Shown here in pieces: positions 15,125 through 32,673 of a DNA stretch of 64,000 nt (its first letter is position 1; each line of letters opens with the position of its first letter). The notes beneath the pieces were generated by a model, which did no database searches, was not told where the DNA came from, and saw only the letters and a program-made list of their open reading frames with translations. Position numbers and translations under genes: made by a program. Origin of the DNA: Bacteroidales bacterium (GTDB lineage: Bacteria > Bacteroidota > Bacteroidia > Bacteroidales > WCHB1-69); the NCBI GenBank assembly GCA_016285085.1, contig JAEEQA010000004.1, positions 13,836 through 77,835 on the forward strand, written 5' to 3'.

Positions 15125-15622
15125 ATGCAGGATTTTGCAGCCATTGATTTCGAGCTCGCCAACAAAGAGAAGACCAGCATCTGCTCCATCGGTCTGGTAG
15201 TGGTGCGGGGCGGTCAGATTGTGGACACTTTTTACAGTCTTATAAAACCTTTTCCCAACATTTACCCGTGGTTCTACACGCGAGTACACGGCATCAACCG
15301 CAAGATGACGGAACAGTCGCCGCTGTTTCCGGAGGCATGGAAGCAGATTGTGCCCAAAATCGAGGGGCTTCCCTTGGTGGCGCACGACAAGACCATTGAG
15401 GAGACCTGCCTCAAGCAGACCTTCGCCCATTACCGGATGAAATATCCCAAATACCAGTTTTACTGCACGTTGATTGCCTCGCAGCAGAAGCTTACCGACG
15501 AGATGGTGGAAAACCACCGCCTGCCGACAGTGGCGAAATATTGCGGTTACGACCTCACCAACCGGCACAACGCGCTTGCCGACGCCGAAGCCTGCGCCGC
15601 CATTGCAATGAAATTGTTATAA
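15125..15622 (+). CDS. DEDDh 3'-5' exonuclease (DnaQ/epsilon-like)
   Basis: Exo I motif 'AAIDFE' and Exo III motif 'HNALADAEA'. 165 aa. Confidence 0.8.
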   Translation: MQDFAAIDFELANKEKTSICSIGLVVVRGGQIVDTFYSLIKPFPNIYPWFYTRVHGINRKMTEQSPLFPEAWKQIVPKIEGLPLVAHDKTIEETCLKQTFAHYRMKYPKYQFYCTLIASQQKLTDEMVENHRLPTVAKYCGYDLTNRHNALADAEACAAIAMKLL

Positions 15623-15647
15623 AATCTATTTCTCCAGACGGTAATTT

Positions 15648-15676
15648 CACTTGTTGCAAGTGGTTTCGTTTTTTTG
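15648..15676 (+). terminator. Weak candidate intrinsic terminator
   Basis: CACTTG-ttg-CAAGTG hairpin followed by GTTTCGTTTTTTT, 26 bp after the exonuclease stop. The stem is only 6 bp. Confidence 0.3.
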
Positions 15677-15772
15677 CTTTTCTTGTCCTCCTCGAAACTC
15701 AACAGGAGGAAACCAAGCGGCAAAGAGACAAAAATATACGATACACGGCTTCAACCATTCTTGGAAATTTTG

Positions 15773-15780
15773 TATTTTTG
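15773..15780 (+). promoter_or_regulatory. Putative -7 box TATTTTTG upstream of the sensor-STAS-PPTase-OMP-NRPS unit
   Basis: TAnnTTTG match 57 bp upstream of the ATG at 15837. Confidence 0.4.
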
Positions 15781-15836
15781 CAGATTTATAGCAGTTTCTG
15801 GTTGAAACCGCGATTTCCAGTCAATAGCCCCCTTTT

Positions 15837-17915
15837 ATGAAGGACAATAACAACAAATACCGTTTTGCAAAGAAAGAGCTTGGCAAAATTTCCATCCCCA
15901 TTGTTGTCCTGTTCATTGTCAGCTTGTCGTACTATTTCTACATGCGGAACGACGCGCTCCGCATGGCTAAAGCAAACTCGGAATTTGCGCTGGAAAATGC
16001 CGAAAACATGATTCTCACTCGCCTGGGAAAGATTCAAACCGTGGTGAATTCCATGCAGCCTTTGGTGGAATACGCCCTTGACGACCCTGATGACATGTTC
16101 GATATCGCCCGCCACACCGTGGAGTCCAGTTCCCGCATCATGGGTTCAGGAATCGCCTTCAAGGAGGACTACTATCCCCAAAAGGGGCACTGGTACGAAA
16201 TCTATGTCGGCCATCAGGCAGGTTGTGACACGCTGATTGCCAAGCAAGTGGGAAGTGCGGAACATGACTATTTCCAGATGGAATGGTATCGGTCGGGGCT
16301 GGCTGCGGAAAAGGGCGTATGGAGCAACCCCTATTACGACAACGTCGGCGGGAAGTCCTACATGATGAGCTATGCCGTTCCCATCCATGACGAGAGCGGC
16401 GAGGTGGTGGGCGTCATCGGTGCGGACATCACCACTGACACCCTCGCCAACATTGTCCGGAGCATCAAGCCCTACCCCCACAGCTTCTGCACACTGACCA
16501 CCAATGACGGCACCATCTTGGTGACACCGCCCGCATATCCCAAAGGAAGATACAAAGTTTTTACGGAGGTTATTGAGGGCAAGAATCTGATCCTGAACAT
16601 CATTGTGCCCTATCCCGACATGTACGGACGACTGTGGCGGTCCACCATCTTCTTTGTCCTTATGGCCTTGACCGGTATTTTGTCAGTGTTTTTCATTGCC
16701 TACCGTTCCATGCAGAACCTGTGGAAACTGAACGAAGTACGCATCAAGGAGCAGCATATCGAGGACGAGCTGGCCATCGCCCGCGAAATCCAGCAGTCGC
16801 TGCTGCCGACGGGTGCCTCCGCATCCTCCATCCCCAAAGTGGATGTGTGCGGGCTGCAGATTCCCGCCAAGTATGTGGGCGGCGACCTTTACGACTACTA
16901 CGTGCGGGGCAACAAGCTGTTTTTCTGCATTGGAGACGTCTCCGGCAAAGGGGTGCCCGCCGCCCTGCTGATGGCCATCTCGCACAGTCTGTTCCGCACC
17001 CTGTCGGCCCACGACGAAAGTCCCGAAAGCATCATGAAGTCGTTCAATGCCGCCATCAACGACAACAACTCCGACATGATGTTCATCACGATGTTCATCG
17101 GCGTCCTTGACATGGAAACGGGCGTTGTACGCTACTGCAATGCCGGACACAACCCGCCGATCATCATCCGGGACGGGCAACCCGAGTACATTGCCACAGA
17201 ACCGTCCCTGCTGTTGGGGGTCGAGACCCATGCGACCTACACCGCTCACACGCTGGAACTCGCCCCGGGCGATTCGCTGTTCCTCTACACCGACGGACTG
17301 ACCGAGGCGGAGAATGCGCGAACGGAACTTTTCGGGGAGAAACGGGCGTTGGAGGTTGCCGCCGGTTTCCACAAGATCACTGCCGCAGAACAGGTGAAGC
17401 AGATGCGGGAGGCGATGCAGCTTTTTGTGGACCACGCCGAACAAAGCGACGACCTCACCCTGCTCGTCATCCGCCATACAGAAACCAGCGCCAATACCAA
17501 CACTCTGACCCTGACCAACAACATCAACGACTTGGAGCGGCTGGAACCGTTTTTGGAGGAGTTCTTCCATCAGAACGGTCTTGCGCCGGCTCCTCTTTCC
17601 CAAATCAGCCTTGCCTTGGAGGAGGCCTTGGCCAACGTCATCATGTACGCCTACCCCGAAGGCACGCAAGGCGATGTCACGCTATCCATGAAAGTGGAGG
17701 GCAAAGCCATCTGTATGGAAATCCGTGACAAGGGCGTGCCGTTCAACCCACTGCAGCAGCAGGAAGTTAACCTTGACGTCCCGCTCGAGGAGCGGAAAAT
17801 CGGCGGTTTGGGCATCCATCTCATCAAGGAAATTATGGATTCGGTGGCGTACGAATACCATGATGGAAGGAACGTGCTGAAGTTGGTTTTTACTACAGAA
17901 ATTAACGAAATTTAA
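15837..17915 (+). CDS. Membrane sensor fusion: Cache-like extracytoplasmic domain, PP2C/SpoIIE phosphatase, and a C-terminal GHKL (RsbW-like) kinase domain
   Basis: Two TM segments bracket a Cache-like region ('WSNPYYDNVGGKSYMMSYAVPIHDESGEVVGVIGADI'). The SpoIIE block carries 'IGDVSGKGVPAALLMA', 'YTDGLTEA' and 'SDDLTLLVI'. The C-terminus carries 'EEALANVIMYAY', 'RDKGVPFNP' and 'GGLGIHLI'. Confidence 0.82.
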   Translation: MKDNNNKYRFAKKELGKISIPIVVLFIVSLSYYFYMRNDALRMAKANSEFALENAENMILTRLGKIQTVVNSMQPLVEYALDDPDDMFDIARHTVESSSRIMGSGIAFKEDYYPQKGHWYEIYVGHQAGCDTLIAKQVGSAEHDYFQMEWYRSGLAAEKGVWSNPYYDNVGGKSYMMSYAVPIHDESGEVVGVIGADITTDTLANIVRSIKPYPHSFCTLTTNDGTILVTPPAYPKGRYKVFTEVIEGKNLILNIIVPYPDMYGRLWRSTIFFVLMALTGILSVFFIAYRSMQNLWKLNEVRIKEQHIEDELAIAREIQQSLLPTGASASSIPKVDVCGLQIPAKYVGGDLYDYYVRGNKLFFCIGDVSGKGVPAALLMAISHSLFRTLSAHDESPESIMKSFNAAINDNNSDMMFITMFIGVLDMETGVVRYCNAGHNPPIIIRDGQPEYIATEPSLLLGVETHATYTAHTLELAPGDSLFLYTDGLTEAENARTELFGEKRALEVAAGFHKITAAEQVKQMREAMQLFVDHAEQSDDLTLLVIRHTETSANTNTLTLTNNINDLERLEPFLEEFFHQNGLAPAPLSQISLALEEALANVIMYAYPEGTQGDVTLSMKVEGKAICMEIRDKGVPFNPLQQQEVNLDVPLEERKIGGLGIHLIKEIMDSVAYEYHDGRNVLKLVFTTEINEI

Positions 17916-17925
17916 TACTGATTTT

Positions 17926-18231
17926 ATGACTATCAACATTACGGAAGAGGGCAACACCATCACCGCCGCATTTGACGGACGGTTGGATACCATTGCCGCA
18001 CAACAGATCAGCGAAACCATCGAGCCGCTGCTGCAACATGCGGACCGCAACATCATCCTTGACTGCGGGAAGATGCCGTTCATCAGCAGTTCAGGTCTTC
18101 GTATTTTCTTGAAAATCAGAAAAGAAGTGGCTGCCAAAGGAGGAAAGGTGTATTTGAAGGATATCTGTCCCGATGTGCAGCAGGTCTTCAAGATGACCAA
18201 GTTGGACGACCTGTTCGAGACCATCGGCTAG
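17926..18231 (+). CDS. STAS-domain anti-sigma-factor antagonist-like protein (SpoIIAA/RsbV-like)
   Basis: 101 aa. Shows 'GRLDT..A......' and the phosphorylatable-Ser motif 'FISSSGLRIFL'. Confidence 0.82.
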   Translation: MTINITEEGNTITAAFDGRLDTIAAQQISETIEPLLQHADRNIILDCGKMPFISSSGLRIFLKIRKEVAAKGGKVYLKDICPDVQQVFKMTKLDDLFETIG

Positions 18232-18232
18232 C

Positions 18233-18793
18233 ATGGTCTATCTCAACGGACATACGGACCGGCTTGACCTTGCGGCGGCATTGGCAAAGGTGTCGGCGCA
18301 ACGCCGCGAGCAGGCGCTGCGGTACCGCTACGAAAGCAGCCAGCGTCTCTCCCTTGCGGTCTATCTGCTCCTGATGGAGGGTTTGGAGAAGGAGTACGGC
18401 ATCTTGGAACCGCCCCTCTTCGACTACACCCCGGAAGGCAAACCCTTTCTTCCCCAGCATCCCGGCATCCACTTCAGCTTCAGCCATTCCGGCACCGTGG
18501 CCCTGTGCGCCCTCAGCGACCGGCCCGTCGGCGCGGATGTGGAAACCACCCGCAAAATCACCCCTTCGTTGGTCAGCTACACCATGAACGAAAGCGAGGA
18601 GGCGATCATCAACGCTTCGGGAAACCCCACAATGCAATTCCTCCACTTCTGGACACGAAAGGAGGCCCTGCTCAAACTCACGGGCGAAGGCATCCGCAAC
18701 AATCTGCGGATGGTGTTGGCCGAAGCGGAAAAATACCAAATGGAAACCGTTCAAACAGAGAATTACATCTACTCCATTGTACAATATAAATAA
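18233..18793 (+). CDS. Sfp-type 4'-phosphopantetheinyl transferase
   Basis: Motifs 'PEGKPFL', 'FSFSHSG', 'VGADVE' and 'FWTRKEALLKLTGEG'. The start is 1 nt after the STAS stop. Confidence 0.82.
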   Translation: MVYLNGHTDRLDLAAALAKVSAQRREQALRYRYESSQRLSLAVYLLLMEGLEKEYGILEPPLFDYTPEGKPFLPQHPGIHFSFSHSGTVALCALSDRPVGADVETTRKITPSLVSYTMNESEEAIINASGNPTMQFLHFWTRKEALLKLTGEGIRNNLRMVLAEAEKYQMETVQTENYIYSIVQYK

Positions 18794-18823
18794 TTTATTA
18801 TCAGTGGATTAAGTTTTTTAATT

Positions 18824-20209
18824 ATGCATATTAATCGTATGAAAATAGCCCAGTGGCTGCTGATGGCGGCATTCTTTTTCGTGACCGGCCAGATACAGGC
18901 GCAGGAAGTCCAAGACACATCGGCGGTACAGGAAACAGAGGAACCCGAACAGGCCGTCAATGAGTTTTCAATCAGTGCCAAGTTGACCACCCGCGGGGAA
19001 ATTCGCTACGGCGGTTTTAATGCCGATGACAACGACAACCAAGCGATGGCACATTTTCTGATGGGTCAGTACAAATTCAGCCTCAGCTATAAGCGTTCGG
19101 ACTGGCTCGAATTGAAACTCACGCCGCAAATGGCGGGAGTCTGGGGGCAGAAGTCGGGGCTGTTGAGTCTCTCTGAAGCGTGGGCGCTTCTGAAGACCAA
19201 GCACACCCTTTTTGCCAAGATCGGACGGCAGACGCTGGAGTACGACGACGAGCGTATTCTGGGTTACGATGACTGGTCGATGACCGCGCCCACCCATGAT
19301 GCGCTGAAATTGGGTTTCGAGGGCTATGGCCACAAGATCCATATCATTTTGGCCTACAATCAGGATCCTGAAAACATAGCCGTCGGGGGAACCTACTATT
19401 CGGGCGGCATCCAGCCCTACAAGACGATGCAGACGTTTTGGTATCACTATGACACCCCGAAATCATTCTTCGGGTTCTCGCTTTTGGCGATGAATATCGG
19501 TATGCAGAACGACAACCCGCAGAAACCAAAGACATTTTACCAGCAAATCTATGGCACCTATATGGAACTGAGGCCGAAATACACGATTCTGTCCGGTGCT
19601 TTCTACTATCAAATGGGCAAGGAGGAGCACGGTATTCCCGTGAGAGCCTTTATGGGCAGTGCAAAACTCAAGGTCAGACCCCACGATATGGTTTCCGTTT
19701 GCGCCGGCTACGATTATCTGAGCGGTGACAAATATTTCGCCGTGCCGCCCATAGGTATGCTGGGAGTGACGCGTCGGGACACGGTTCGGGGGTTCAGCTC
19801 CCTTTTCGGCTCGCACCACGATTTCTACGGCGCCATGGACTTTTTTTATGTTGACAGCTACGTAAGCGGTTTTACCCCCGGTCTGCAGAACCTTTACGCC
19901 GGAATCTCAGTGTATCCAGTGGCAGGTTTAAGCATCAATGCGGCGTACCACTTCTTTGCCATCGCTACCGATCTTGACAACCTTAAGAAACCGCTTGGAC
20001 ACGAAGTGGAAACCTCTCTATCCTACACGTTTGCGAAATTTGTCACCGTCGCAGCGGGATACACCTTTATGAAGGGAACCGAAACCATGCTTGCCCTACA
20101 GCGCGTTTCCAACCAACGCCGGCTGCACTGGGGCTGGGTCATGCTGTCCATCAACCCCACCATTTTCTCCACTACATGGCAAGATAAAAAGAAGAGAGTT
20201 AAGAGTTAA
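18824..20209 (+). CDS. Outer-membrane beta-barrel protein (porin-like; possibly alginate-export family)
   Basis: Signal peptide followed by alternating amphipathic strands rich in Y/G/aromatic residues. A terminal-strand-like '...INPTIFSTTW' is followed by a 9-aa basic tail contributed by the heptamer tract. The family assignment is from memory only. Confidence 0.55.
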   Translation: MHINRMKIAQWLLMAAFFFVTGQIQAQEVQDTSAVQETEEPEQAVNEFSISAKLTTRGEIRYGGFNADDNDNQAMAHFLMGQYKFSLSYKRSDWLELKLTPQMAGVWGQKSGLLSLSEAWALLKTKHTLFAKIGRQTLEYDDERILGYDDWSMTAPTHDALKLGFEGYGHKIHIILAYNQDPENIAVGGTYYSGGIQPYKTMQTFWYHYDTPKSFFGFSLLAMNIGMQNDNPQKPKTFYQQIYGTYMELRPKYTILSGAFYYQMGKEEHGIPVRAFMGSAKLKVRPHDMVSVCAGYDYLSGDKYFAVPPIGMLGVTRRDTVRGFSSLFGSHHDFYGAMDFFYVDSYVSGFTPGLQNLYAGISVYPVAGLSINAAYHFFAIATDLDNLKKPLGHEVETSLSYTFAKFVTVAAGYTFMKGTETMLALQRVSNQRRLHWGWVMLSINPTIFSTTWQDKKKRVKS

Positions 20210-20251
20210 GAGTTAAAAGTTAAAAGTTAAGAGTTAAGAATTTAGAATTCA
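20196..20251 (+). repeat. Heptamer tract (GAGTTAA x3, AAGTTAA x2, GAGTTAA, GAATTTA, GAATTCA) spanning the OMP stop codon
   Basis: Eight consecutive 7-bp units. The embedded TAA rotates through all three frames, and the second unit supplies the gene's stop (20207-20209). The tract ends 17 bp before the NRPS ATG. Confidence 0.85.
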
Positions 20252-20267
20252 GATATATAGAAAATTA

Positions 20268-23200
20268 ATGGATACTATGAAAAATATCGCTCCTTTGTCT
20301 CAATCGCAATTAGGTATTTATGCCGAATGCGTACATCACGAAAACGAGATCTTTTATAACCTCCCCTTTCTCTATGTTTTTGACGGCAGTCTCGACGCCG
20401 ACCGGTTGTGCCGCGCCATAGAGGCGACCTTAAAGGCGCATTCCACTTTCTTCACACGGATTGAACTGAGTGATGACGGAGAACCTTTGCAGACTATTGA
20501 CCTGGAAAAAGAGGAATTCAGCCTTTCCGTCGAGCAGGTTACGGACCTTGAGGCTGAGAAGCGAAAATTCATCGAGCCTTTCAAACTCCATGGCGGCAGG
20601 TTGTTTCATACCAAGGTGATGCGCGACGCGGAGCATGTCTATTGGTTCTTCGACATGCATCATATCATCAGCGACGGCTCCTCGTACCATATTATCGTTT
20701 GCGATGTGGAAACGGCTTACAACGGCGGCACGCTGGCTCCCGAGGAGATGACGATGCAGGAACTGGCCCTTGCCGAAGCCGAGATGCGGAAAACGCCTGC
20801 TTTCGAGGAGGGCAAACAGTGGTATGCCCAGAACTTCGACTGCGGCGACACGTTCACCCAGCTCATGCCCGACCTCGAAATCCCCGAACAAACAGATGCC
20901 AATAAACACCGCGTCCTCAATACTGATATGGACCGGGTGGATGCTTTCTGCAAGACCAACGGCATCAAAAAAAGCACCTTCTTCACGTCGGCATTTTCTT
21001 TCCTGCTGGCCAAGTACAACAACGATCAGGAATCGCTGTTCACCACGGTTTTCAACGGTCGCACCGACCCGAAGTTCCAACATTCCGTCGGCATGACAGT
21101 AAAGACGCTGCCCGTTTACGCCAAGTTCACGGAAGAGACCACGGTGCTCGATTTCATGAAAGCCGGCGAGGAACAGATGATCGGCTGCCGCAAGCACGAC
21201 CTCTATTCCTATACCGACATCATGACCGACCTCAACCTGCAAACCAACGCCATATTTGCATGGCACGGGCTCATACTTGATTTCACCGAACTGATGGGCA
21301 AACCCATGGAGGCCATTCAGCTCCGCAAACATAACGAGGGAGTGTCGTTCTATCTGATGGCTTACTATGTCGGCAAAAAATATCATATCAAAGCGGAATA
21401 CAACGCCAACGAATATTCCGAGACGCTGGTTGACCAATTCATGGAGAGTTACGAGGCGGTTTTGGAGGGCTTCCTAAGCCAAACTCTCCTGTGCGACATC
21501 GACATCTGCACCGAGAGCCAGCGCGCCCTGCTTGACCGTTTCAACCAGACCGACAAGGAGTTGGATATGAACGCGACCATCGTTTCCAAGTTTCGTGAGC
21601 AGGTGGCGAAGACTCCTGACAACATCGCGGTGGTTTATCAGGACAAACGTTTTACCTACAAAGAATTGGATGAGATTTCCGACCGCATCGCAGCCTATAT
21701 CCATGGGAAAGGCCTTCATGAAGAGGATGTCGTTTCTGTGTTGATTCCGCGTTGCGAATGGATGCCTATCGTCTCCATGGGCGTGTTGAAGGCCGGCTGT
21801 GCTTACCAGCCCCTCGACCCCACCTATCCTTCGGAACGTCTCAACTTCATGATGCAGGATGCCTCCGTGAGGTTGCTCATCGCCGACCCGGAACTGCGCG
21901 GTATCGTCGATCAATACACCGGCGAGGTGCTGTTTACCACGGACATCAAAACATTGGAAACCGTAGAGACGTTTCATGAAACGTCTCTACAACAGCCGAA
22001 TTCGTCCTCCCTTTTCATCATGCTTTACACTTCCGGCACTACGGGAACGCCTAAGGGCTGTCAGATTGTGCATCGCAACATCGTTGCGTTCTGCGAGTGG
22101 TACCACCACCGGTTCAACCTCACCGCTGACTGCCGCGTTTCGGCCTACGCCAGTTTCGGTTTCGATGCCAATATGATGGAAACCTATCCTGCGCTCACGT
22201 GTGGTGCCACGCTCTACATTATCCCTGAAGAACTGCGCCTGGATTTGCTGGCATTGAACGAATATTTTGAGCAAGAGCAGATTACTCACGGATTCATGAC
22301 CACGCAGGTGGCTTATCAGTTTGCCACTTCCATTGAGAACCACTGCCTGCACTACCTGTTGACAGGCGGCGAGAAGCTGGCACCCCTGACCCCGCCTGCG
22401 AACTACACGCTGGTGAACCTCTATGGTCCGACCGAAAGCACCGTCTGCATCACCTCCTTCGACGTGACAAAGCCCATGAAGGACATCCCGATTGGCTCGG
22501 CGTTGGACAACACCAAGCTTTATATTGTCGATAAGGCGGGTCACCGTCTGCCGGTGGGGGTAGCGGGTGAGCTCTGGGTCGCCGGACCGCAAGTGAGTCG
22601 CGGCTACCTCAACCGTCCCGAAAAAACCGCTGAGGTCTATATCGACAACCCCTTCGATTCCAGCGAGAAATACGCGCACATCTACCGCACCGGCGACATC
22701 GTACGCTACCTGCCCGACGGCAACATCCAGTTCGTGGGACGTAAGGACGGACAGGTCAAGATCCGCGGTTTCCGCATCGAATTAAAAGAGGTTGAAGGCA
22801 TCATCCTTCAATTCCCCGGCATCAAGGACGCCACCGTGCAAGCCTTCGATGAAGAGGGCGGCGGCAAGTTCATTGCGGCCTATATCGTTTCCGATGAACA
22901 AATTGACATCGATGCCTTGAACAACTTCATCATGGAGGAGAAACCGCCTTACATGGTGCCCGCCGTGACGATGCAGATCGACCGGATTCCGCTCAACCAG
23001 AACCAGAAAGTGAACAAGAAAGCCCTTCCCAAGCCCGAGAAGAAAGCGGCTGAGGCGGTGGTGGAGAGCAATGTGCCCATGAATGTACTTGAGAAGGAAA
23101 TCCACGACATCATTGCAAAAATCATCAATACCGAGGACTTTGGCGTAACGACCGTATTGGGCTATGTCGGCCTCACCTCCATCATGGCCATCAAACTGGC

Positions 23201-26200
23201 CATCCAGATCAACAAACGTTTCGGGGTCACCCTCGACTCGAAATCATTGGCCAAGACGGGTACTTTGCAAAGCATTGAAAACGAAATCCTAAACGCGATG
23301 CTCTCAGGAAATGTCGCTGTTCATTCCAGCGAGTCTGGGCAGTCTGTTCAGACAGAACAGGCCACTCCGACAGGTCCGGTTCCCTTGAGCTACGCGCAGA
23401 TGGGTGTCTATGTGGATTGCATGAAACAGCCCACGTCCACGGTCTATAACATTCCTTCACTCATCCGTTTTCCCAAAGGAACCGACGTGCTGCTGCTTGC
23501 CAAATCTGTGGAGACCCTCGTCAAGGCGCACCCGCAGTTCTTTGTGCATTTTGACAGCGAAGGAGGCGAAATCGTACAGATTGTTGACACCAATCAACCG
23601 GTTACCGTCACAAAGAGCCAGTTAAGTGAAACGGAACTGGAAAAATACAAGGTGAAGTTTGTAAGACCGTTCAACTTGCGGCAGGGACCGCTGTACCGCA
23701 TGGAAATCGTCACCACCGGGCAGGATGTTTACCTCTTGGCCGATGTCCATCACCTGATTTTCGACGGCGGTTCCTTCGACCTGTTCCTGAACCAGTTGTG
23801 CGACCTGATGAACGGCAAAGAGATCGAAGCCGAGGCCATCAACTATGCGGCTTTTGTCGCCGACGAGAAAGCGGCTGAAAACAGTCCGAGCTACCTTGAG
23901 GCCAAGAACTTCTTCAACGAGCGTTTGGGTAAAGTGGAGGGCGTCACCGAAGTGCCTGCCGACCTGACCAATCCCGTGGAGCAAGGCACGGTCAGCGAGG
24001 CTTTCTGCAAGCTGGATTTCGATGCGATGGAGGAATTTTGCAAGAAAAACAATCTCTCACCCGCGCACCTCACCCTGGCGGCGGTGTTCTATGCGCTCTC
24101 GCGTTTCACCAACAACGAACAGATTTGCATCACCACCATCAGCAACGGCCGCTCTGACCTGCGCATCCGCAACACGACGGGCATGTTTGTCAACACGCTG
24201 GCCCTGAGTGCCCAGATTGGCGACCAAAGCGTGATGGACTTCCTGAAGGAGACCAGCCAGAACTTCAACGAGACTTTGACCCATGAAAAATATCCGTTTG
24301 CGCAAATTGCCGCCGACTACGACCTGTCGGCCGAAATCATGTTTGCCTATCAGATGGGTGTTATTGACCAATATCTTGTCAATGGTCAAAAACTTGAAAT
24401 AGAGTCTCTTGAGCTGAACACACCGAAGTTCCGTATCGCTTTCTACATTCAAGAAAAAGAAGGTGTGCCGGGCGTGGTGGTGGAATACGACAATGGTCGC
24501 TACAGCCAGGAACTGATGCAAAGTCTGGCGCAGTCGGTCAGCAATGCAGTCAATGCTTTCATCCGCCAGCCGGAGTCGGCGTTGCAGCATATTTCCCTGC
24601 TGGATGCCGAACAGACCGCTTTGCTCGACAGCTTCAACCAGACGGCTGTGCCTTACGACGACACCCAGACCATTGTTTCGCTGTTCCGCAAGCAGGTGGA
24701 GCAAACGCCCGACAATCTGGCGGTGGTGTATCATGATAATAAATACACCTATCGCGAGGTGGATGAGATTTCGGAGCGCATCGCAGGCTATGTCGTCGCA
24801 CAAGGACTTGGGAACGAAGATGTCGTTTCCGTGCTGATTCCGCGCTGCGAATGGATGGCCATCGTTTCGTTGGGCGTTTTGAAGGCCGGCTGCGCCTACC
24901 AGCCCCTCGACCCGAGCTATCCCGCCGAACGTCTGAACTTTATGATGAAAGACGCCGCTGCAAAACTGCTCATTGCCGATGAAGAATTGCGTCCCATCGT
25001 AAATGAATATGAAGGAAAGGTGTTGTTGACAAAGGATATTGCGACATTGAACCCTGTAGAGACGTTTCATGAAACGTCTCTACATGAAACGTCTCTACAA
25101 CCGACGCCGTCCTCCCTTTTCATCATGCTTTACACCTCCGGTTCCACGGGAACGCCGAAGGGTTGTCAGCTGGAACATGGCAACTTGGTGGCTTTCTGCC
25201 ATTGGTATCAGCGCCATTATGGGCTGACGGCCGCCGACCGCGTGGCGGCGTATGCCAGCTATGGTTTCGACGCCTGCATGATGGACCTTTACCCGGCGTT
25301 GACGTGCGGTGCCTGCGTCCACATCATTGGGGATGACATCCGCCTGAACCTGCCCGACCTCAACAACTATTTCAATGAGCAGGGCATCACCCACTCGTTC
25401 ATCACCACGCAGGTGGGCTACCAGTTTGCCACGAATGTGGACAACCACTCACTGCGTTGCTTCGCGGTGGGTGGCGAGAAGCTGTCCGCCCTCAACCCGC
25501 CGACAAACTACAAGATGTACAACGGCTACGGTCCGACGGAGTGTACCATCTTCACCACCAACTACTGGGTGAAGGATTACGAGCTGGACATCCCCATCGG
25601 CAAACCGCTGGACAACCTGAAACTCTATATCGTTGACAAGCAGTTTAATAGATTGCCTCTCGGGGCTGCCGGCGAACTATGGGTCACGGGACCGCAGGTG
25701 AGCCGTGGCTACCTGAACCGTCCCGAAAAGACGGCCGAGACCTACCTGAAGAACCCCTTCAGCGATGACCCGAAGCACGCCCGCGTCTATCGCACCGGCG
25801 ACATCGTGCGCTACCTCCCTGACGGCAACATCCAGTTTGTGGGGCGCAAGGACGGTCAGGTGAAAATTCGCGGCTTCCGCATCGAGCTGAAGGAGGTGGA
25901 AGCTGTCATCCGCCAGTATCCGGGCATCAAGGACGCCACCGTACAAGCCTTTGATTATGAGAACGGTGGAAAGTACATTGCCACCTATATTGTCAGCGAT
26001 GAGAAAGTTGACATCAAACAGCTCAATGCTTTCATCGGGCAGCAGAAACCGCCCTACATGATTCCGGCGGCGACGATGCAGATTGACAGCATCCCGCTGA
26101 ACCAGAACCAGAAGGTGAACCGCAAGGCACTGCCCACGCCCGTCATCCAAGCCAGCGACCGTGAGTATGTGGCACCGGCCAATTCGGCGGAGGAGCTGTT

Positions 26201-27602
26201 CTGCCGTATCTTCGGTGAGGTGCTCGCTCTCGACAAAGTCGGCGCCACCGACAACTTCTTCGATCTCGGCGGCACCTCTCTGATGGTGACCCGCGTCATC
26301 ATCGAGGCCGACAAGCAGGGGGTGCATGTGGCCTACGGCGACGTCTTCGCCAATCCCACCCCGCGCAAACTCGCCGCACTCGTCATGGGAGGCATTGTTG
26401 TCAATACCGACGATGAGGAGGTGACCCGATTTGATTATTCTTCCATCAACAATTTACTGGGTAACAATACATTGGATAGCTTCCGCAATGGCGAGCGGCA
26501 ATCCTTGGGCAACGTTCTGCTCACCGGTGCCACAGGTTACCTGGGCATTCATGTGTTGCAGGAACTGATCCAGTCGGATGCGCAGAACATCTACTGTCTG
26601 GTACGCGACAAGAACCTGGATGGCGCCGAGCACCGGTTGAAAACATTGCTGTTCTACTATTTTGAATCCACCTACGACGAGCTGTTCGGCAACCGTCTTC
26701 ACATTGTCCTTGGCGATGTCACCAACGACCTGACCGCTCTTGTCGAAGCGAAGATTGACACGGTGTTCAACTGTGCCGCTGTCGTAAAGCACTTCAGTGA
26801 AGGCACCGAGATTGAGGATGTGAATGTGGGAGGCGCGCAGCGTTGTGTGGAGCTCTGTCTGAAGACCGGCGCACGGTTGGTACACATTTCCACGTACAGC
26901 ACCAGCGGGCTCAACGTCAACGACACCATGGCTTCCGACTACATCTTCACCGAGCAGCGGCTTTACGACGGTCAGTACCTCGGAAACCAGTACGTTCATT
27001 CCAAGTTCATGGCCGAACGCATCGTACTGCAATCGATAGTAGAGGACGGGCTGTCGGCCAAGGTGATCCGTGTCGGTAACCTGGCGGCACGCACCAGCGA
27101 CGGTGAGTTCCAGATCAACTTCTCCACCAACTCCTTTATGGGGCGTATCAAAGTCTTTAACATGCTGGGCTGCTTCCCCTATTCTCTGTACGAGAGTAAA
27201 GTGGAGTTTTCACCCATTGATGAGGTGGCGCATGCCATCATTCTGCTCAGTTCCACACCCAAGGAGTGCTGTGTGTTCCATGCTTACAACAGCCACGAGC
27301 AGTTCCTCGGCGACGTCCTCAGCGGATTCAACAACCTGGGCACAAACATCCGTCTCGTGGAGGACGAGGAGTACAACGCCACCATGGAGAGTGCGGGCAA
27401 CGATCCCCAGAAGGCCAAGACGCTTTCCAGCTTGCTCGCTTACCAAGATATGGCCCACGGCATGAAAGTCAAACAGGTGGTCGTTAGTAACCAGTACACC
27501 ACGCAGGTGCTCTATCGTCTGGGCTTCAAATGGTCGCCCACCACGTGGGACTACGTCGATCGCATGTTGAGTGCCATCAGCGGGTTGGGATTCTTTGATT
27601 AG
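20268..27602 (+). CDS. Bimodular non-ribosomal peptide synthetase, C-A-T-C-A-T-R (terminal thioester reductase)
   Basis: 2444 aa. Two 'HHxxxDG' C-domain motifs (HHIISDG, HHLIFDG). Two adenylation cores ('LYTSG(T/S)TGTPKG', 'YGPTE', 'GELWV.GPQVSRGY', 'YRTGD', 'GRKDGQVKIRGFRIEL'). Two carrier sites ('GLTS', 'LGGTS'). The C-terminal SDR carries 'LLTGATGYLG' and 'YVHSK'. Confidence 0.93.
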   Translation: MDTMKNIAPLSQSQLGIYAECVHHENEIFYNLPFLYVFDGSLDADRLCRAIEATLKAHSTFFTRIELSDDGEPLQTIDLEKEEFSLSVEQVTDLEAEKRKFIEPFKLHGGRLFHTKVMRDAEHVYWFFDMHHIISDGSSYHIIVCDVETAYNGGTLAPEEMTMQELALAEAEMRKTPAFEEGKQWYAQNFDCGDTFTQLMPDLEIPEQTDANKHRVLNTDMDRVDAFCKTNGIKKSTFFTSAFSFLLAKYNNDQESLFTTVFNGRTDPKFQHSVGMTVKTLPVYAKFTEETTVLDFMKAGEEQMIGCRKHDLYSYTDIMTDLNLQTNAIFAWHGLILDFTELMGKPMEAIQLRKHNEGVSFYLMAYYVGKKYHIKAEYNANEYSETLVDQFMESYEAVLEGFLSQTLLCDIDICTESQRALLDRFNQTDKELDMNATIVSKFREQVAKTPDNIAVVYQDKRFTYKELDEISDRIAAYIHGKGLHEEDVVSVLIPRCEWMPIVSMGVLKAGCAYQPLDPTYPSERLNFMMQDASVRLLIADPELRGIVDQYTGEVLFTTDIKTLETVETFHETSLQQPNSSSLFIMLYTSGTTGTPKGCQIVHRNIVAFCEWYHHRFNLTADCRVSAYASFGFDANMMETYPALTCGATLYIIPEELRLDLLALNEYFEQEQITHGFMTTQVAYQFATSIENHCLHYLLTGGEKLAPLTPPANYTLVNLYGPTESTVCITSFDVTKPMKDIPIGSALDNTKLYIVDKAGHRLPVGVAGELWVAGPQVSRGYLNRPEKTAEVYIDNPFDSSEKYAHIYRTGDIVRYLPDGNIQFVGRKDGQVKIRGFRIELKEVEGIILQFPGIKDATVQAFDEEGGGKFIAAYIVSDEQIDIDALNNFIMEEKPPYMVPAVTMQIDRIPLNQNQKVNKKALPKPEKKAAEAVVESNVPMNVLEKEIHDIIAKIINTEDFGVTTVLGYVGLTSIMAIKLAIQINKRFGVTLDSKSLAKTGTLQSIENEILNAMLSGNVAVHSSESGQSVQTEQATPTGPVPLSYAQMGVYVDCMKQPTSTVYNIPSLIRFPKGTDVLLLAKSVETLVKAHPQFFVHFDSEGGEIVQIVDTNQPVTVTKSQLSETELEKYKVKFVRPFNLRQGPLYRMEIVTTGQDVYLLADVHHLIFDGGSFDLFLNQLCDLMNGKEIEAEAINYAAFVADEKAAENSPSYLEAKNFFNERLGKVEGVTEVPADLTNPVEQGTVSEAFCKLDFDAMEEFCKKNNLSPAHLTLAAVFYALSRFTNNEQICITTISNGRSDLRIRNTTGMFVNTLALSAQIGDQSVMDFLKETSQNFNETLTHEKYPFAQIAADYDLSAEIMFAYQMGVIDQYLVNGQKLEIESLELNTPKFRIAFYIQEKEGVPGVVVEYDNGRYSQELMQSLAQSVSNAVNAFIRQPESALQHISLLDAEQTALLDSFNQTAVPYDDTQTIVSLFRKQVEQTPDNLAVVYHDNKYTYREVDEISERIAGYVVAQGLGNEDVVSVLIPRCEWMAIVSLGVLKAGCAYQPLDPSYPAERLNFMMKDAAAKLLIADEELRPIVNEYEGKVLLTKDIATLNPVETFHETSLHETSLQPTPSSLFIMLYTSGSTGTPKGCQLEHGNLVAFCHWYQRHYGLTAADRVAAYASYGFDACMMDLYPALTCGACVHIIGDDIRLNLPDLNNYFNEQGITHSFITTQVGYQFATNVDNHSLRCFAVGGEKLSALNPPTNYKMYNGYGPTECTIFTTNYWVKDYELDIPIGKPLDNLKLYIVDKQFNRLPLGAAGELWVTGPQVSRGYLNRPEKTAETYLKNPFSDDPKHARVYRTGDIVRYLPDGNIQFVGRKDGQVKIRGFRIELKEVEAVIRQYPGIKDATVQAFDYENGGKYIATYIVSDEKVDIKQLNAFIGQQKPPYMIPAATMQIDSIPLNQNQKVNRKALPTPVIQASDREYVAPANSAEELFCRIFGEVLALDKVGATDNFFDLGGTSLMVTRVIIEADKQGVHVAYGDVFANPTPRKLAALVMGGIVVNTDDEEVTRFDYSSINNLLGNNTLDSFRNGERQSLGNVLLTGATGYLGIHVLQELIQSDAQNIYCLVRDKNLDGAEHRLKTLLFYYFESTYDELFGNRLHIVLGDVTNDLTALVEAKIDTVFNCAAVVKHFSEGTEIEDVNVGGAQRCVELCLKTGARLVHISTYSTSGLNVNDTMASDYIFTEQRLYDGQYLGNQYVHSKFMAERIVLQSIVEDGLSAKVIRVGNLAARTSDGEFQINFSTNSFMGRIKVFNMLGCFPYSLYESKVEFSPIDEVAHAIILLSSTPKECCVFHAYNSHEQFLGDVLSGFNNLGTNIRLVEDEEYNATMESAGNDPQKAKTLSSLLAYQDMAHGMKVKQVVVSNQYTTQVLYRLGFKWSPTTWDYVDRMLSAISGLGFFD
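20280..21557 (+). other. NRPS condensation domain C1 (N-terminal, starter-like position)
   Basis: Approximately aa 5-430; HHIISDG at aa 131-137 (nt 20658-20678). Boundaries approximate. Confidence 0.7.
21576..23042 (+). other. NRPS adenylation domain A1
   Basis: Approximately aa 437-925. A3 'LYTSGTTGTPKG', A4 'FDANMME', A5 'NLYGPTESTVCIT', A10 'NQNQKVNKKAL'. Boundaries approximate. Confidence 0.75.
21963..21990. repeat. Palindromic element copy 4 (centre TTTCATGAAA), in-frame inside NRPS A1
   Basis: A perfect 28-bp palindrome, GTAGAGACGTTTCATGAAACGTCTCTAC. It is translated as VETFHETSLQ (aa 566-575), immediately N-terminal to the A3 core motif. Confidence 0.9.
23079..23297 (+). other. NRPS carrier (T/PCP) domain T1
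   Basis: Approximately aa 938-1010. The attachment site is 'GYVGLTSIMAIKL' (Ser971, nt 23178-23180), which deviates from the canonical LGGxS. Confidence 0.6.
23373..24662 (+). other. NRPS condensation domain C2
   Basis: Approximately aa 1036-1465; HHLIFDG at aa 1161-1167. Confidence 0.7.
24669..26147 (+). other. NRPS adenylation domain A2
   Basis: Approximately aa 1468-1960. A3 'LYTSGSTGTPKG', A4 'FDACMMD', A5 'NGYGPTECTIFTT'. Long stretches are near-identical to A1. Confidence 0.75.
25055..25099. repeat. Palindromic element copy 5 (centre TTTCATGAAA) plus a 15-bp partial duplication, in-frame inside NRPS A2
   Basis: The full palindrome at 25056-25083 is followed by a repeat of its right half, ATGAAACGTCTCTAC (25084-25098). 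Translated as VETFHETSLHETSLQ (aa 1597-1611), at the position homologous to copy 4. Confidence 0.9.
26175..26387 (+). other. NRPS carrier domain T2
   Basis: Approximately aa 1970-2040. Canonical 'FFDLGGTSLM' (Ser2004). Confidence 0.75.
26514..27599 (+). other. NRPS terminal thioester reductase (R) domain
   Basis: Approximately aa 2083-2444. Rossmann 'TGATGYLG' and catalytic 'Y(2242)VHSK(2246)'. Confidence 0.8.
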
Positions 27603-27636
27603 GGGGATAAAAAGGGAATATTGCTGAAAAAGGTCC

Positions 27637-30793: not shown

Positions 30794-32245
30794 GAAATAC
30801 AGGTCCCGTTCCCCCTTCTTAATCCGCTCGATGCGGGCCAGCAGCTCGTCGCGGAACTGTTCGTCCACGTTGCAGAGGTTGTTCTCGATCACCTTCCAGC
30901 CCTTGGCCGCCACCTCGGGGGTAGCATAGTCCACCAGGTACTCGCTGAGCGTGAGGATGGCGTTGGGCGTGCAGTAACGCTTGATGAAGCCCGGCACGCT
31001 GAACTCCATGAAGTGCTCGCCGGTGCGGCCCAGACGGTAACAGGCCGTGCAGAAGCTGGGGATGTAGTTTCCGTCCAACAGCTCTTCGATGATGTCGCCG
31101 AGGTTGCGGTCGTCTCCAATCTTGAACTGCTCGCGGTGCAGGTTCTGGTTCTCCTGCTTGTCGCTGTTCTTCTCGGTCTCTTCGTGATGGTACTTGTAAT
31201 CACCGATCTGGAGGTTGGTGCCGCCGTCAATCTGCGAGATACCGTACTGGATGGCTTTGGCGCGGAAGTCGGCGTTCTCGCGGGCGGTGAGAATCATGCC
31301 GGTGTAGGGCACGGCCAGACGGAAGATGGCGATGATCTTCTCGAAGGTTTCGTCATCCACAAAGTATTTCTTGTCGATGTCCAGACCGGAGGCATCCTTG
31401 ATGCGCGGGAACGAGATGGTGTGCGGTCCCACGTTGAAGCAGGCTTCCAGGTGGTTGGTGTGGCGGATCATCGCCATCACCTCGAAACGCCAGTCGTACA
31501 GACCGAACAGGATACCGAGACCGTTGTCGTCGATGCCGGCCTGCTGGGCGCGGTCCATGGCGGTGAGGCGCCAGTTGAAGTCACCCTTGATGGTGTTGGC
31601 GGGGTGGTACCACGAGTAAGCCTCCGGGTGGTAGGTCTCCTGGAAAATCTGGTAGGTGCCGATGCCGGCCTCTTTCACCGTGCGGAAGCCCTCCACATCG
31701 AGCGGTGCGGCGTTGATGTTCACGCGGCGGATGGAGCCGTTGCCCTTGTGCACCGAATAGGCGAGGCGGGTGGTGTGGGCGATGAACTCCGGCGAATACT
31801 TCGGCGACTCGCCATAAACGAGGATGAGTCGTTTCTGACCGTCATCTTCCAAAGCCTCAATGTTATGCACGAACTCCTCATCGGTGAGGGTGGTGCGCAC
31901 CTGCTCGTGGTTGGAAGAGCGGAAACCGCAATATTTGCAGTTGTTCACGCAGTAGTTGCCCACGTACAGGGGGGCGAACAGCACGATGCGGTTGCCGTAG
32001 ATGCGGCGTTTCAGCTCGCGGGCACCTTCCTTGATCTCCTCCACGAGAGCGGGGTCGGTGGTGTTGATGAGCACGGCGGTCTCCTCGAGCGTGAGGCGCT
32101 CCTTGTTCAGCGATTTCTGAATCAGCGCGCGCACCCGCTCGGGTGTGCTTTTCGTGTTGTTGATGTAATCCCAAATTTCTTCAGGATCGATAAAAGGCTT
32201 GCCGATTTCGTCGGGAATCCGACATTTTTCTGGATTGAATTTCAT
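30791..32245 (-). CDS. hydG: [FeFe]-hydrogenase H-cluster maturase, radical-SAM tyrosine lyase HydG
   Basis: 484 aa. Carries the radical-SAM motif 'CVNNCKYC' and the HydG-specific C-terminal CX2CX22C motif ('CTAC' + 22 residues + 'C' in 'RYCTPNA'), which a ThiH would lack. Confidence 0.85.
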   Translation of the reverse strand: MKFNPEKCRIPDEIGKPFIDPEEIWDYINNTKSTPERVRALIQKSLNKERLTLEETAVLINTTDPALVEEIKEGARELKRRIYGNRIVLFAPLYVGNYCVNNCKYCGFRSSNHEQVRTTLTDEEFVHNIEALEDDGQKRLILVYGESPKYSPEFIAHTTRLAYSVHKGNGSIRRVNINAAPLDVEGFRTVKEAGIGTYQIFQETYHPEAYSWYHPANTIKGDFNWRLTAMDRAQQAGIDDNGLGILFGLYDWRFEVMAMIRHTNHLEACFNVGPHTISFPRIKDASGLDIDKKYFVDDETFEKIIAIFRLAVPYTGMILTARENADFRAKAIQYGISQIDGGTNLQIGDYKYHHEETEKNSDKQENQNLHREQFKIGDDRNLGDIIEELLDGNYIPSFCTACYRLGRTGEHFMEFSVPGFIKRYCTPNAILTLSEYLVDYATPEVAAKGWKVIENNLCNVDEQFRDELLARIERIKKGERDLYF

Positions 32246-32289
32246 GGTTGTTTATTTGTTTAATTGTTGATTTGTTTATCTGTTGATTC

Positions 32290-32317
32290 GTAGAGACGCA
32301 AAATTTTGCGTCTCTAC
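32290..32317. repeat. Palindromic element copy 8 (centre CAAAATTTTG), between the TM1266-like gene and hydG
   Basis: Identical 28-mer to copy 7. Coordinates are anchored on ORF-track positions (hydG start 32245; ORF 32306; stop 32323). Confidence 0.9.
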
Positions 32318-32580: not shown

Positions 32581-32673
32581 TAGATTTTCCTTTGGATTAG
32601 ACTGATTATTAATATTTTATAGCGATGTTTTGTTTTGGAGAAGAAACATCCGCTCCGCAAGAAAACAACGCGG

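Follow-up and report, generated by a model that had tools for sequence, protein, structure and literature searches.

A candidate NRPS operon of rumen Bacteroidales, linked to a sensor phosphatase/kinase and a STAS protein, is predicted to make an N-acyl dipeptide aldehyde

A 64,000-nucleotide stretch of DNA from an uncultured rumen Bacteroidales bacterium (the window) carries what appears to be one five-gene operon at 15837-27602, encoding a sensor phosphatase/kinase, a STAS-domain protein, a 4'-phosphopantetheinyl transferase (PPTase), an outer-membrane barrel, and an NRPS (Table 1). On balance, we favor the reading in which this operon makes an N-acyl dipeptide aldehyde under partner-switch control; the predicted product of the NRPS itself is probably a small fatty-acylated dipeptide aldehyde. 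The established part of this account comprises the gene order, domain order, motifs, purifying selection, AlgE-like fold, linkage of sensor and STAS genes to the NRPS, and a presence/absence polymorphism of the NRPS.

Table 1. Features of the candidate operon and its upstream region, in window coordinates
Feature	Coordinates	Strand	Basis or remark
Terminator-like hairpin and T-run	15647..15663	+	TCACTTGTTGCAAGTGG then TTTCGTTTTT; consensus match only
Candidate Bacteroidetes-type -7 element, TAtTTTTG	15773..15780	+	Consensus TAnnTTTG; 57 bp 5' of sensor ATG
Membrane sensor, 692 aa	15837..17915	+	Pfam, hydropathy
STAS-domain protein, anti-sigma-factor-antagonist type, 101 aa	17926..18231	+	Pfam STAS, 3.6e-19
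Sfp-type PPTase, 186 aa	18233..18793	+	Pfam ACPS, AASDHPPT_N
AlgE-like (alginate-export fold) outer-membrane beta-barrel, 461 aa	18824..20209	+	Pfam PF13372, AlphaFold2, Foldseek
NRPS, 2444 aa	20268..27602	+	C-A-T-C-A-T-R
NRPS C1, putative N-terminal starter-type condensation, residues 1-430	20268..21557	+	HHIISDG at residue 128
NRPS A1, adenylation, residues 431-925	21558..23042	+	Pfam AMP-binding 442-781, AMP-binding_C 841-914
NRPS T1, carrier	23043..23357	+	Serine in atypical GLTS, invariant throughout family
NRPS C2, internal elongation-type condensation	23358..24647	+	Pfam Condensation 1038-1453; HHLIFDG
NRPS A2, adenylation	24648..26147	+	69% identical to A1
NRPS T2, carrier	26148..26402	+	Pfam PP-binding 1978-2039; serine in GGTSL
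NRPS R, terminal NAD(P)H-dependent thioester reductase, stop codon included	26403..27602	+	Pfam NAD_binding_4 2085-2324

The five genes are tightly packed, with intergenic gaps of 10, 1, 30, and 58 bp in gene order; the STAS gene begins 10 bp past the sensor gene and stops 1 bp short of the PPTase gene. The hairpin, which lies 3' of the preceding RNase T gene, likely marks the upstream limit of the transcription unit. The -7 element is the single match on the + strand across 15600-20400 to TAnnTTTG, a consensus known from Bacteroides promoter studies, and is a candidate promoter element for the operon. An earlier note on this DNA had placed three + strand genes in a cluster at 18233-27602: we recovered all three at exactly those coordinates (PPTase, barrel, and NRPS in Table 1), but the limit was drawn too narrowly, missing the sensor and STAS genes directly upstream at 15837-18231. 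Against the favored reading, the operon lacks genes for acyl activation, for an acyl carrier protein, and for export across the inner membrane, although MatE or MFS genes are present in relatives.

We counted gene linkage across 55 species loci, each with at least 4 kb of flank on both sides. The NRPS is present in 31 of them, and the sensor and STAS genes occur together in 29 of those 31 versus 4 of the 24 loci that lack it (Fisher p = 4e-9, uncorrected for phylogeny). The sensor also occurs with the NRPS in L080-L082, two of which (L080 and L081) have no barrel and nonetheless keep sensor, STAS, and NRPS together. The linkage persists despite rearrangement (L054, L059 with L072), and in L079, a relative with the layout A-T-C-A-T-C-A-T-R, the sensor and STAS genes still lie ~5 kb from the NRPS. 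No genes accompany the NRPS more constantly than those for the sensor phosphatase/kinase and the STAS protein; the PPTase gene occurs in only 8 of the 31 NRPS-bearing loci.

The sensor consists of a transmembrane helix (~14-36), a periplasmic dCache/PDC domain (90-236), a second transmembrane helix (~266-292), a SpoIIE-type PP2C phosphatase (358-547), and an RsbW-type serine kinase, HATPase_c_2 (564-684). The STAS protein scores 68 bits against NCBIfam TIGR00377 (cut-off, 53) and carries the conserved phosphorylatable serine motif FISSSGL. Sensor and STAS partner could together form a partner switch through which a periplasmic signal governs production or export. SypE/SypA of Vibrio fischeri and SiaA/B/C of Pseudomonas aeruginosa are partner switches that control non-sigma targets, and RsbU/RsbW/RsbV is the classical case; in each, as predicted for the window, the conserved serine of a STAS protein is the target of a PP2C phosphatase and an RsbW-type kinase. 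The window sensor, a weak NCBIfam match to SiaA, fuses phosphatase and kinase in one protein, as SypE does. It differs from these systems in its periplasmic dCache input, in having an NRPS as its conserved neighbor, and in the absence of an adjacent sigma factor, diguanylate cyclase, or polysaccharide locus. Neither a sigma factor nor any other evident target for the STAS protein is encoded in the 64-kb window, and a literature search found no description of a sensor/STAS pairing with an NRPS.

The barrel is a genuine outer-membrane protein, as had been proposed. It scores 30.4 bits against Pfam Alginate_exp (cut-off, 25.2), has an N-terminal signal peptide probably cleaved after IQA, and yields an AlphaFold2 model (pLDDT 75.6) that is all beta-strand past the signal helix. 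Foldseek places this model nearest AlgE of Pseudomonas aeruginosa (E 5e-15, TM ~0.6), followed by the OccD/OccK porins; it shares the 18-strand-type fold of both at only 12-13% identity. Unlike AlgE, the barrel has no alginate or polysaccharide genes nearby, and its family is found in very different operons. An identical barrel protein with the same neighbors is present on four independent rumen metagenome contigs; homologues elsewhere lie in nrfA/cytochrome c, MnmE, ArgRS, and glycoside-hydrolase contexts, and some NRPS relatives have MatE or SNF in place of the barrel. Because the family occurs in such unrelated contexts, the dedicated export route suggested in the earlier note is weakly supported; the barrel is an optional accessory of the NRPS locus. 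It may offer the product a route across the outer membrane, presumably outward.

The NRPS comprises, by Pfam, two Condensation domains, two AMP-binding plus AMP-binding_C pairs, two PP-binding domains, and a terminal NAD_binding_4/Epimerase domain (2085-2324), and a 7.3-kb open reading frame with such an ordered series of domains cannot have arisen by chance. Pfam and motif reading bear out the C-A-T-C-A-T-R layout and intact catalytic motifs that had been claimed: the translation contains the A3 motifs LYTSGTTGTPKG and LYTSGSTGTPKG, the A8 motif GRKDGQVKIRGFRIEL in both A1 and A2, and TGATGYLG, LVR, and IST...YVHSK in the R domain. Every domain is under purifying selection (dN/dS 0.04-0.24). 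The PPTase, likewise real and of Sfp type, retains the motifs GADVE and WTRKEALLK. A1 can be aligned over its full length to GrsA PheA (1AMU), and the Stachelhaus codes are DAMFLGLVCK for A1 and DAMFAGGIFK for A2; both domains keep Asp235 and Lys517, and their pocket residues are all apolar, which points to hydrophobic amino acids as the substrates. We found no match to either code in the searchable literature and, to our knowledge, they correspond to no known code.

C1 shares 52-66% identity with the N-terminal C domains found in relatives but only ~25% with any internal one, whereas C2 has 46-81% identity to every internal C domain of the relatives; relatives that start with A-T have C2-type domains only. 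Because its clade, conserved in more than 100 homologues, is exclusively N-terminal, we read C1 as starter-type, as had been suggested before. C1, and not C2, matches the surfactin starter C domain 8F7F; counting against this reading, its best PDB match by sequence is the elongation C domain TycC6. C1 is as constrained as C2 (dN/dS 0.07-0.15). The R domain (dN/dS ~0.05) is, by sequence, of the AusA/Mru_0351 type, with PDB matches to the Mru_0351 PCP-R didomain 6VTJ (E 8e-94; 39% identity over 473 aligned T-R residues), AusA R 4F6L (E 3e-50), and MxaA R (E 4e-17). A Dieckmann-type R* domain was rejected because this one still has its catalytic Tyr and Lys. Dimodular NRPSs with a terminal reductase release dipeptide aldehydes, which an N-acyl tail stabilizes (PMC8210680; PMC12327764). 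With 6VTJ and 4F6L as its nearest solved relatives, reductive release of an (acyl-)dipeptide remains the most reasonable logic for this R domain. The PPTase would convert both carrier domains to the holo form, A1 would load a hydrophobic L-amino acid on T1 and A2 another on T2, C1 would N-acylate the first residue with an acyl-CoA or acyl-ACP of primary metabolism, C2 would make the dipeptide, and R would release it with NAD(P)H, most likely by a two-electron reduction to an N-acyl dipeptide aldehyde. The domain logic of the earlier note is thus supported; its statements on NRPS rarity, dedicated export, and the cluster boundary are unsupported or need correction.

Among the closest known systems is AusA/PznA with AusB of Staphylococcus aureus, which shares with the window a dimodular NRPS, a terminal SDR-type reductase, and an Sfp-type PPTase. 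AusA is the top NCBIfam model for the window NRPS (1541 bits over residues 356-2432, far below the equivalog cut-off of 2500), and AusB the top model for the PPTase (67.9 bits versus 225), followed by HetI and AcpT, whose equivalog cut-offs are also not reached. Unlike the window NRPS, AusA has been given the layout A-T-C-A-T-R, with no functional starter C domain, and it makes a free dipeptide aldehyde that turns into a pyrazinone, whereas we predict an N-acylated one; the window also differs in its diderm host and in the added barrel, sensor, and STAS genes. Guo et al. (Cell 2017) reportedly described a gut-bacterial NRPS family giving dipeptide aldehydes and pyrazinones, some members being C-A-T-C-A-T-R and the clusters mainly from Clostridia, and Schneider and Balskus (2018) are said to have described ruminopeptin from Ruminococcus bromii. 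The window family, in contrast, is one of Bacteroidales (rumen MAGs and Muribaculaceae), and we know of no sensor/STAS or barrel genes in those gut clusters. The likeness is one of predicted logic: a short NRPS, reductive release, aldehyde-stabilizing N-acyl variants, and a gut habitat (PMC12327764; PMC8210680). The best solved relative of the window T2-R is Mru_0351 of Methanobrevibacter ruminantium M1, also from the rumen and, like the window family, an orphan NRPS (PMC8024701); it is archaeal and larger (catalytic Tyr, Y3988), and the comparison covers its terminal didomain alone.

Two alternatives concern the product. Were C1 non-acylating, a free dipeptide aldehyde would cyclize and oxidize spontaneously to a dihydropyrazinone or pyrazinone, like the aureusimines, and may serve as a signal instead of a protease inhibitor. 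The top score of AusA among the curated family models, the lack of an acyl-supply gene in the operon, the established route from R-released dipeptide aldehydes to pyrazinones (PMC8210680), and the reported use of pyrazinones as autoinducers by Klebsiella (PMC11480411) are consistent with this scenario. We nonetheless consider it unlikely, as an idle C1 is hard to square with so distinct and conserved an N-terminal-only clade, with its intact HHxxxDG, and with constraint equal to that on C2. Equally improbable, in our judgment, is a four-electron reduction by R to an N-acyl dipeptidyl alcohol, a non-electrophile. The SDR-type R fold does yield alcohols in MxaA, MxcG, and an M. tuberculosis NRPS, and the NCBIfam model of MxcG is a strong match to the C-A-T-R part of the window NRPS, but the window R domain is far nearer to that of AusA (aldehyde) than to that of MxaA (alcohol). 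The extent of reduction has no settled determinants in the literature, two- and four-electron release being indistinguishable from sequence (PMC8024701).

A further alternative, which we regard as possible but doubtful, places the barrel outside biosynthesis, perhaps along with the sensor and STAS genes, and makes the NRPS a mobile cassette that enters and leaves a pre-existing sensor-STAS-barrel locus. The NRPS gene has been deleted repeatedly between close strains: it is cleanly absent in L008 versus L004, deleted in L034 versus L022 with a 34-aa remnant between flanks of 93-100% identity, and decayed in L017. Close strains retain sensor, STAS, and barrel after NRPS loss, so this trio may serve some separate function; it also stands without an NRPS in L042 and L070 and apparently in L052, whose downstream flank is only 3.7 kb. 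An integrase adjoins the barrel in L041, and between the window and L011 nucleotide identity is 87% across barrel and NRPS and only 65.5% in the sensor gene, which, with the unrelated contexts of barrel homologues, fits a cassette. A cassette agrees poorly, however, with sensor and STAS genes that accompany the NRPS where the barrel is missing, with a linkage that holds under shuffled gene order and at a distance of 5 kb, and with five window genes that are 1-58 bp apart behind one candidate promoter.

The earlier note took NRPSs to be infrequent in genomes like this one, which holds for cultured Bacteroidia only (PMC9248904): the present family is represented in no fewer than 31 rumen Bacteroidales species genomes (species representatives) and in Muribaculaceae, its members appear in the list of the 120 best protein clusters, and 934 NRPS clusters were tallied for Bacteroidaceae in a survey of the rumen (PMC8241843). 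The family is common in rumen bacteria yet uncharacterized, and its product here is a prediction. If that product is indeed an N-acyl dipeptide aldehyde, it would belong to a type of electrophile by which cysteine and serine proteases are inhibited, and the N-acyl group, if present, would block cyclization to a pyrazinone.

The three plus-strand open reading frames that the earlier note assigned to a PPTase, an outer-membrane barrel, and an NRPS lie where it put them; its start for the cluster, 18233, is too late. Two more plus-strand genes, for a sensor and a STAS protein, adjoin upstream, and the operon begins at 15837, with gaps of 10, 1, 30, and 58 bp between its five genes. The single TAnnTTTG on the plus strand between 15600 and 20400 falls 57 bp before the sensor gene and is a candidate promoter element, and a terminator-like hairpin follows the RNase T gene upstream of the operon. 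An Rfam scan of the window returned tRNA only, with no riboswitch or leader 5' of the operon.

Positions of the operon genes and of other features in the window
Feature	Window position	Strand	Product and content
Sensor gene	15837-17915	+	692 aa; two transmembrane segments flanking dCache/PDC, then SpoIIE-type PP2C and RsbW-type kinase
dCache stretch with M-E-W-Y	16200-16320	+	sensor residues about 140-165
STAS protein gene	17926-18231	+	SSSGL phosphorylation motif
PPTase gene	18233-18793	+	186 aa
Barrel gene	18824-20209	+	461 aa
NRPS gene	20268-27602	+	2444 aa; C1-A1-T1-C2-A2-T2-R
A1 domain	21558-23042	+	
A2 domain	24648-26147	+	
PD-(D/E)XK transposase-family gene	4652-5605	-	
RND efflux operon	8170-13955	+	HlyD-type adaptor, AcrB-type pump, OEP channel
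Low-GC stretch	about 32000-35000		GC 0.39-0.41, vs about 0.53 elsewhere
PD-(D/E)XK transposase-family gene	33966-34871	+	
Long-chain acyl-CoA-ligase-like gene	39926-41782	-	
OmpA-domain protein gene	43305-44867	-	
Repeat ORF	44954-63976	-	6340 aa; Ig_7 (CHU_C-associated), Ig_3, Ig_2, and PKD repeats

The NRPS comprises two complete modules in C-A-T-C-A-T order (in Pfam terms, Condensation, AMP-binding, and PP-binding twice each, with AMP-binding_C accompanying both AMP-binding domains), followed by a C-terminal NAD_binding_4/Epimerase domain at residues 2085 to 2324 (NAD_binding_4, 6e-35). The catalytic motifs are intact, as had been claimed: HHIISDG in C1 (residue 128) and HHLIFDG in C2, canonical A3 and A8 in A1 and A2 alike, the serines of the carrier domains in GLTS (T1) and GGTS (T2), and, in the R domain, the Rossmann motif TGATGYLG with LVR, IST, and YVHSK, where the Thr/Ser-Tyr-Lys catalytic set is found. 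In pairwise comparisons with five related genes, dN/dS is 0.04 to 0.24 across all NRPS domains; C1 (0.07 to 0.15) is under constraint like that of C2, and R is the tightest at about 0.05. Together, motifs and dN/dS rule out a vestigial or inactive C1 or R domain, a prospect that the earlier note had raised. We consider it highly probable that the NRPS works and that its product is a short dipeptide, probably acylated, set free by reduction.

Our comparison of C domains, which took in two-, three-, and four-module relatives, yielded two clean clades. C1 is 52 to 66% identical to the N-terminal C domains of all relatives that begin with C, versus ~25% to internal C domains. C2 is 46 to 81% identical to all internal C domains of the relatives, including the first C of those that start with A-T, and A-T-starting relatives carry internal-type C domains only. 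Since its clade is confined to the head of the assembly line, C1 looks like a starter-type (lipo-initiating) condensation domain, a prediction from clade position. PDB sequence searches are ambiguous: C1 best matches the elongation C domain TycC6 (86 bits), with the surfactin starter C domain 8F7F at 43 bits; the search with C2, unlike that with C1, does not detect 8F7F. Inside the window NRPS, identity is 69% between A1 and A2, versus 27% for C1 and C2 and 25% for T1 and T2, and a trimodular relative, P0001, carries the code DAMFLGIVCK in both module 1 and module 2. The likeness of the A domains and this repeated code point to duplication of an A domain or module, or to gene conversion, within the NRPS family.

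A1 and A2 each align with GrsA PheA from end to end, and anchoring by motif to GrsA gives the Stachelhaus codes DAMFLGLVCK for A1 and DAMFAGGIFK for A2. The retention of Asp235 and Lys517 in both domains indicates that the substrates are alpha-amino acids. Every residue of both pockets is apolar, and the A2 pocket (Ala299, Gly301, Gly322) is larger than that of A1 (Leu299, Leu322). To our knowledge, neither code matches any described code, and a literature search for six codes of the NRPS family found no occurrence. Over the 120 NRPS homologues listed, the codes vary in a patterned fashion, A1 also reading DALFIGGCYK or DAMFSGGIFK and A2 also DCMFIAGILK; such variation is typical of a family that is diversifying its products. 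The last A domain of several three- and four-module relatives (P0094, P0101, P0103, P0105, P0106, P0109, P0110, P0116 to P0118, and P0120) carries the code DAEGTGVDDK, whose acidic pocket suggests a basic C-terminal residue. Speculatively, the DAEGTGVDDK relatives with a terminal R domain could make leupeptin-like acyl-peptidyl argininals or lysinals.

The best solved relative of the T2-R didomain is the PCP-R structure (6VTJ) of Mru_0351, an NRPS of the rumen methanogen Methanobrevibacter ruminantium M1 (E 8e-94, 39% identity), followed by the aldehyde-forming R domain of AusA, the aureusimine NRPS of Staphylococcus aureus (E 3e-50), and, far behind, by the alcohol-forming R domain of MxaA (E 4e-17). 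The window R domain is accordingly typed, from its sequence, as AusA/Mru_0351-like. The product of Mru_0351 is not known; what makes an R domain stop at two electrons or go on to four is not understood, and sequence is no guide to it (PMC8024701). We predict aldehyde release as the likelier outcome for the window enzyme. The chemistry proposed in the earlier note is sensible, and its domain order and intact motifs are confirmed. Against the NCBIfam equivalog model for AusA (NF047350), the window NRPS scores 1541.5 bits where the cutoff is 2500, and the alignment is limited to residues 356 to 2432; to judge by this, it is not an AusA orthologue, and its last six domains are predicted to be AusA-like in their working. 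Gut-bacterial dipeptide-aldehyde NRPSs and ruminopeptin follow the same logic, to go by their descriptions in reviews (PMC12327764, PMC8210680).

In the mechanism that we propose, the PPTase would prime T1 and T2, A1 and A2 would load two hydrophobic amino acids, C1 would acylate the first residue with an acyl thioester drawn from primary metabolism, C2 would make the peptide bond, and R would then release an N-acyl dipeptide aldehyde. We lean toward this compound as the actual product. The PPTase is a two-subdomain, Sfp-type (group II) enzyme (Pfam ACPS and AASDHPPT_N) with the motifs GADVE and WTRKEALLK (Mg-binding, W/FxxKE). Its best curated models, AusB (the aureusimine PPTase), HetI, and AcpT, are all Sfp-type, and it falls under the equivalog cutoff of each (68 against 225 for AusB).

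With one genome scanned per species, 73 loci carrying a barrel homologue emerged, and 55 of these have at least 4 kb on each side. Sensor and STAS genes occur together in 29 of the 31 loci that bear an NRPS (the other 2 do not have both) and in 4 of the 24 that lack one, the remaining 20 having neither (18 loci) or STAS alone (2 loci) (Fisher exact p = 4e-9, shared ancestry not corrected for). A PPTase gene is present in 8 of the 31 NRPS-bearing loci. The five genes stay together even where their order is altered, as in one MAG with PPTase-NRPS-barrel-sensor-STAS (L059 with L072) and in L054, where the arrangement is divergent. Contexts found by starting from the NRPS settle the matter. Two bimodular relatives (64 to 66% identical) lack the barrel and show sensor-STAS-NRPS followed by a MatE or SNF transporter; a trimodular relative has the order sensor-STAS-barrel-NRPS-MatE; and an A-T-C-A-T-C-A-T-R relative adjoins a PPTase, with the sensor/STAS pair 5 kb off. 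The sensor/STAS pair is therefore the NRPS's most constant partner; its accessories, namely barrel, PPTase, and MatE, are interchangeable.

The Pfam assignment of the barrel, PF13372 (Alginate_exp), is marginal (30.4 bits against a gathering threshold of 25.2), and the helix and AQA at its N terminus fit a signal peptide. An AlphaFold2 model (pLDDT 75.6) built from 41 homologues shows an all-beta barrel whose nearest structural neighbor is AlgE (Foldseek E 5e-15, TM about 0.6), followed by the OccD/OccK porins. Neither the window nor the related loci hold genes for synthesis or export of alginate or polysaccharide, and the modeled barrel is a member of the AlgE family by fold, not by function. 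Its homologues (39 to 61% identity) occupy differing contexts, following MnmE, ArgRS, or pectinesterase genes in MAGs and Prevotella, from which we conclude that this is a general Bacteroidales channel family, one member of which is now linked to the NRPS operon. In Bacteroides cellulosilyticus DSM 14838 (L064:6433-11230), a homologue of 40% identity closes an operon that holds nrfA (cytochrome c552 nitrite reductase) and genes for cytochrome assembly of the ResB/CcsA-like kind, a context that hints that the family may handle small-solute traffic outside secondary metabolism. Given these unrelated contexts and the NRPS relatives that do without a barrel, the earlier note's dedicated export route is weakly supported, and the argument is best dropped. 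Export of the product by the barrel would be reasonable, and the data are equally compatible with a barrel that instead imports the signal for the Cache sensor.

The sensor and STAS protein carry the full partner-switch set (SpoIIE 2.4e-55, HATPase_c_2 1.2e-25, and STAS 3.6e-19 in Pfam, with the serine motif SSSGL). No sigma-factor domain was found in the window ORFs scanned, so the output of the switch is probably not a sigma factor. A periplasmic ligand would set the phosphatase/kinase balance of the sensor and hence the state of STAS, which would in turn govern production or export. We take RxWY to be the amino-acid-sensing motif of dCache domains and its Arg site to be the one aligned with M-E-W-Y in the sensor; with M-E-W-Y where the carboxylate-binding Arg is expected, the ligand is probably not a free amino acid. 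A more elaborate reading is a signal-gated circuit of a sort not described for NRPSs, in which the Cache-PP2C-RsbW sensor sets STAS phosphorylation and STAS acts post-translationally on the synthetase or on export, a directness suggested by the lack of a sigma factor nearby; the ligand could even be the cluster's own product, re-entering by way of the AlgE-like barrel in an autoinducer or quorum-type loop of rumen Bacteroidales. We regard this circuit as an improbable conjecture. Our literature searches found no NRPS cluster with a partner-switching pair and no NRPS under partner-switch control.

Comparison of loci shows an NRPS that is dispensable and often lost. It is cleanly absent from L008, whose flanks are collinear with those of L004, and a 7-kb deletion in L034 (11430-11710, versus L022:11676-18776) has left a 34-aa stub between flanks that are 93 to 100% identical in protein to those of this sister locus. 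In L017 (11262-13232) the NRPS has collapsed to 656 aa, the first 93 C-domain residues being fused to an A domain, and in L041 (11291-12418) a phage-type integrase stands right after the PPTase-STAS-barrel trio, with the NRPS absent. The window and L011 share 87% nucleotide identity over 18958-27614 (most of the barrel gene and the NRPS) versus 65.5% over the sensor/STAS stretch 16689-18206, and these unequal identities suggest a mosaic history of the locus, one that would fit NRPS exchange among lineages.

Several other genes of the window were considered. The RND operon, complete and lying 2 kb ahead of the NRPS operon, was rejected as a missing exporter: no gene in it shows synteny with the cluster across the 73 related loci, and in the closest relative, L021, the genes between RND operon and cluster are inverted. 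The downstream T9SS-tail protein, saccharopine dehydrogenase, and radical-SAM genes were likewise set aside as tailoring genes, as they lie on the opposite strand and their adjacency to the NRPS is not conserved. The acyl-CoA-ligase-like gene, thought of as an acyl supplier, is 12 kb from the NRPS operon and on the other strand. The 6340-aa repeat ORF, which starts 24 bases from the window end and is followed by the OmpA-domain gene, looks like a giant surface adhesin. The low-GC stretch around one of the transposase-family genes may be a mobile or foreign insert.

Uncultured Bacteroidales MAGs from the rumen of sheep, yak, cattle, buffalo, and deer are the nearest genomes, and four contigs in NCBI rumen metagenome assemblies encode an identical barrel protein with the same neighbors. 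Together with the adjacent gene for a protein bearing a T9SS sorting domain, these matches place the window in a rumen Bacteroidales bacterium. Collinear C-A-T-C-A-T-R homologues (36 to 46% identity) extend to Muribaculaceae, the sole organism name returned when non-Bacteroidales relatives of C1 were sought in a 50% representative library and by cluster look-ups. The earlier note's view that NRPSs are uncommon here holds for cultured Bacteroidia only, with their mean of 1.15 BGCs per strain (PMC9248904); the cluster is common in rumen Bacteroidales, and rumen MAGs hold 934 NRPS clusters in Bacteroidaceae, with Prevotella NRPSs expressed (PMC8241843). We found no characterized product in the literature for a rumen, Prevotella, or Bacteroidales NRPS-R, nor for this NRPS family; the cluster is a common, uncharacterized variant, in Bacteroidales, of a system whose kind is known, and surveys have counted such clusters, never characterized them. 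Gut-bacterial peptide aldehydes are potent protease inhibitors, and the nitrogen economy of the rumen hinges on proteolysis and peptide turnover. The strain-level losses of the NRPS are natural knockouts that could be used in comparative metabolomics. Of most interest is the conserved sensor/STAS pairing, which offers a handle on the timing of compound production; should STAS act on the synthetase or on export, this would be a new mode of NRPS control. If this very widespread family makes peptide aldehydes, it would count as a candidate mediator of competition or host interaction in ruminants.
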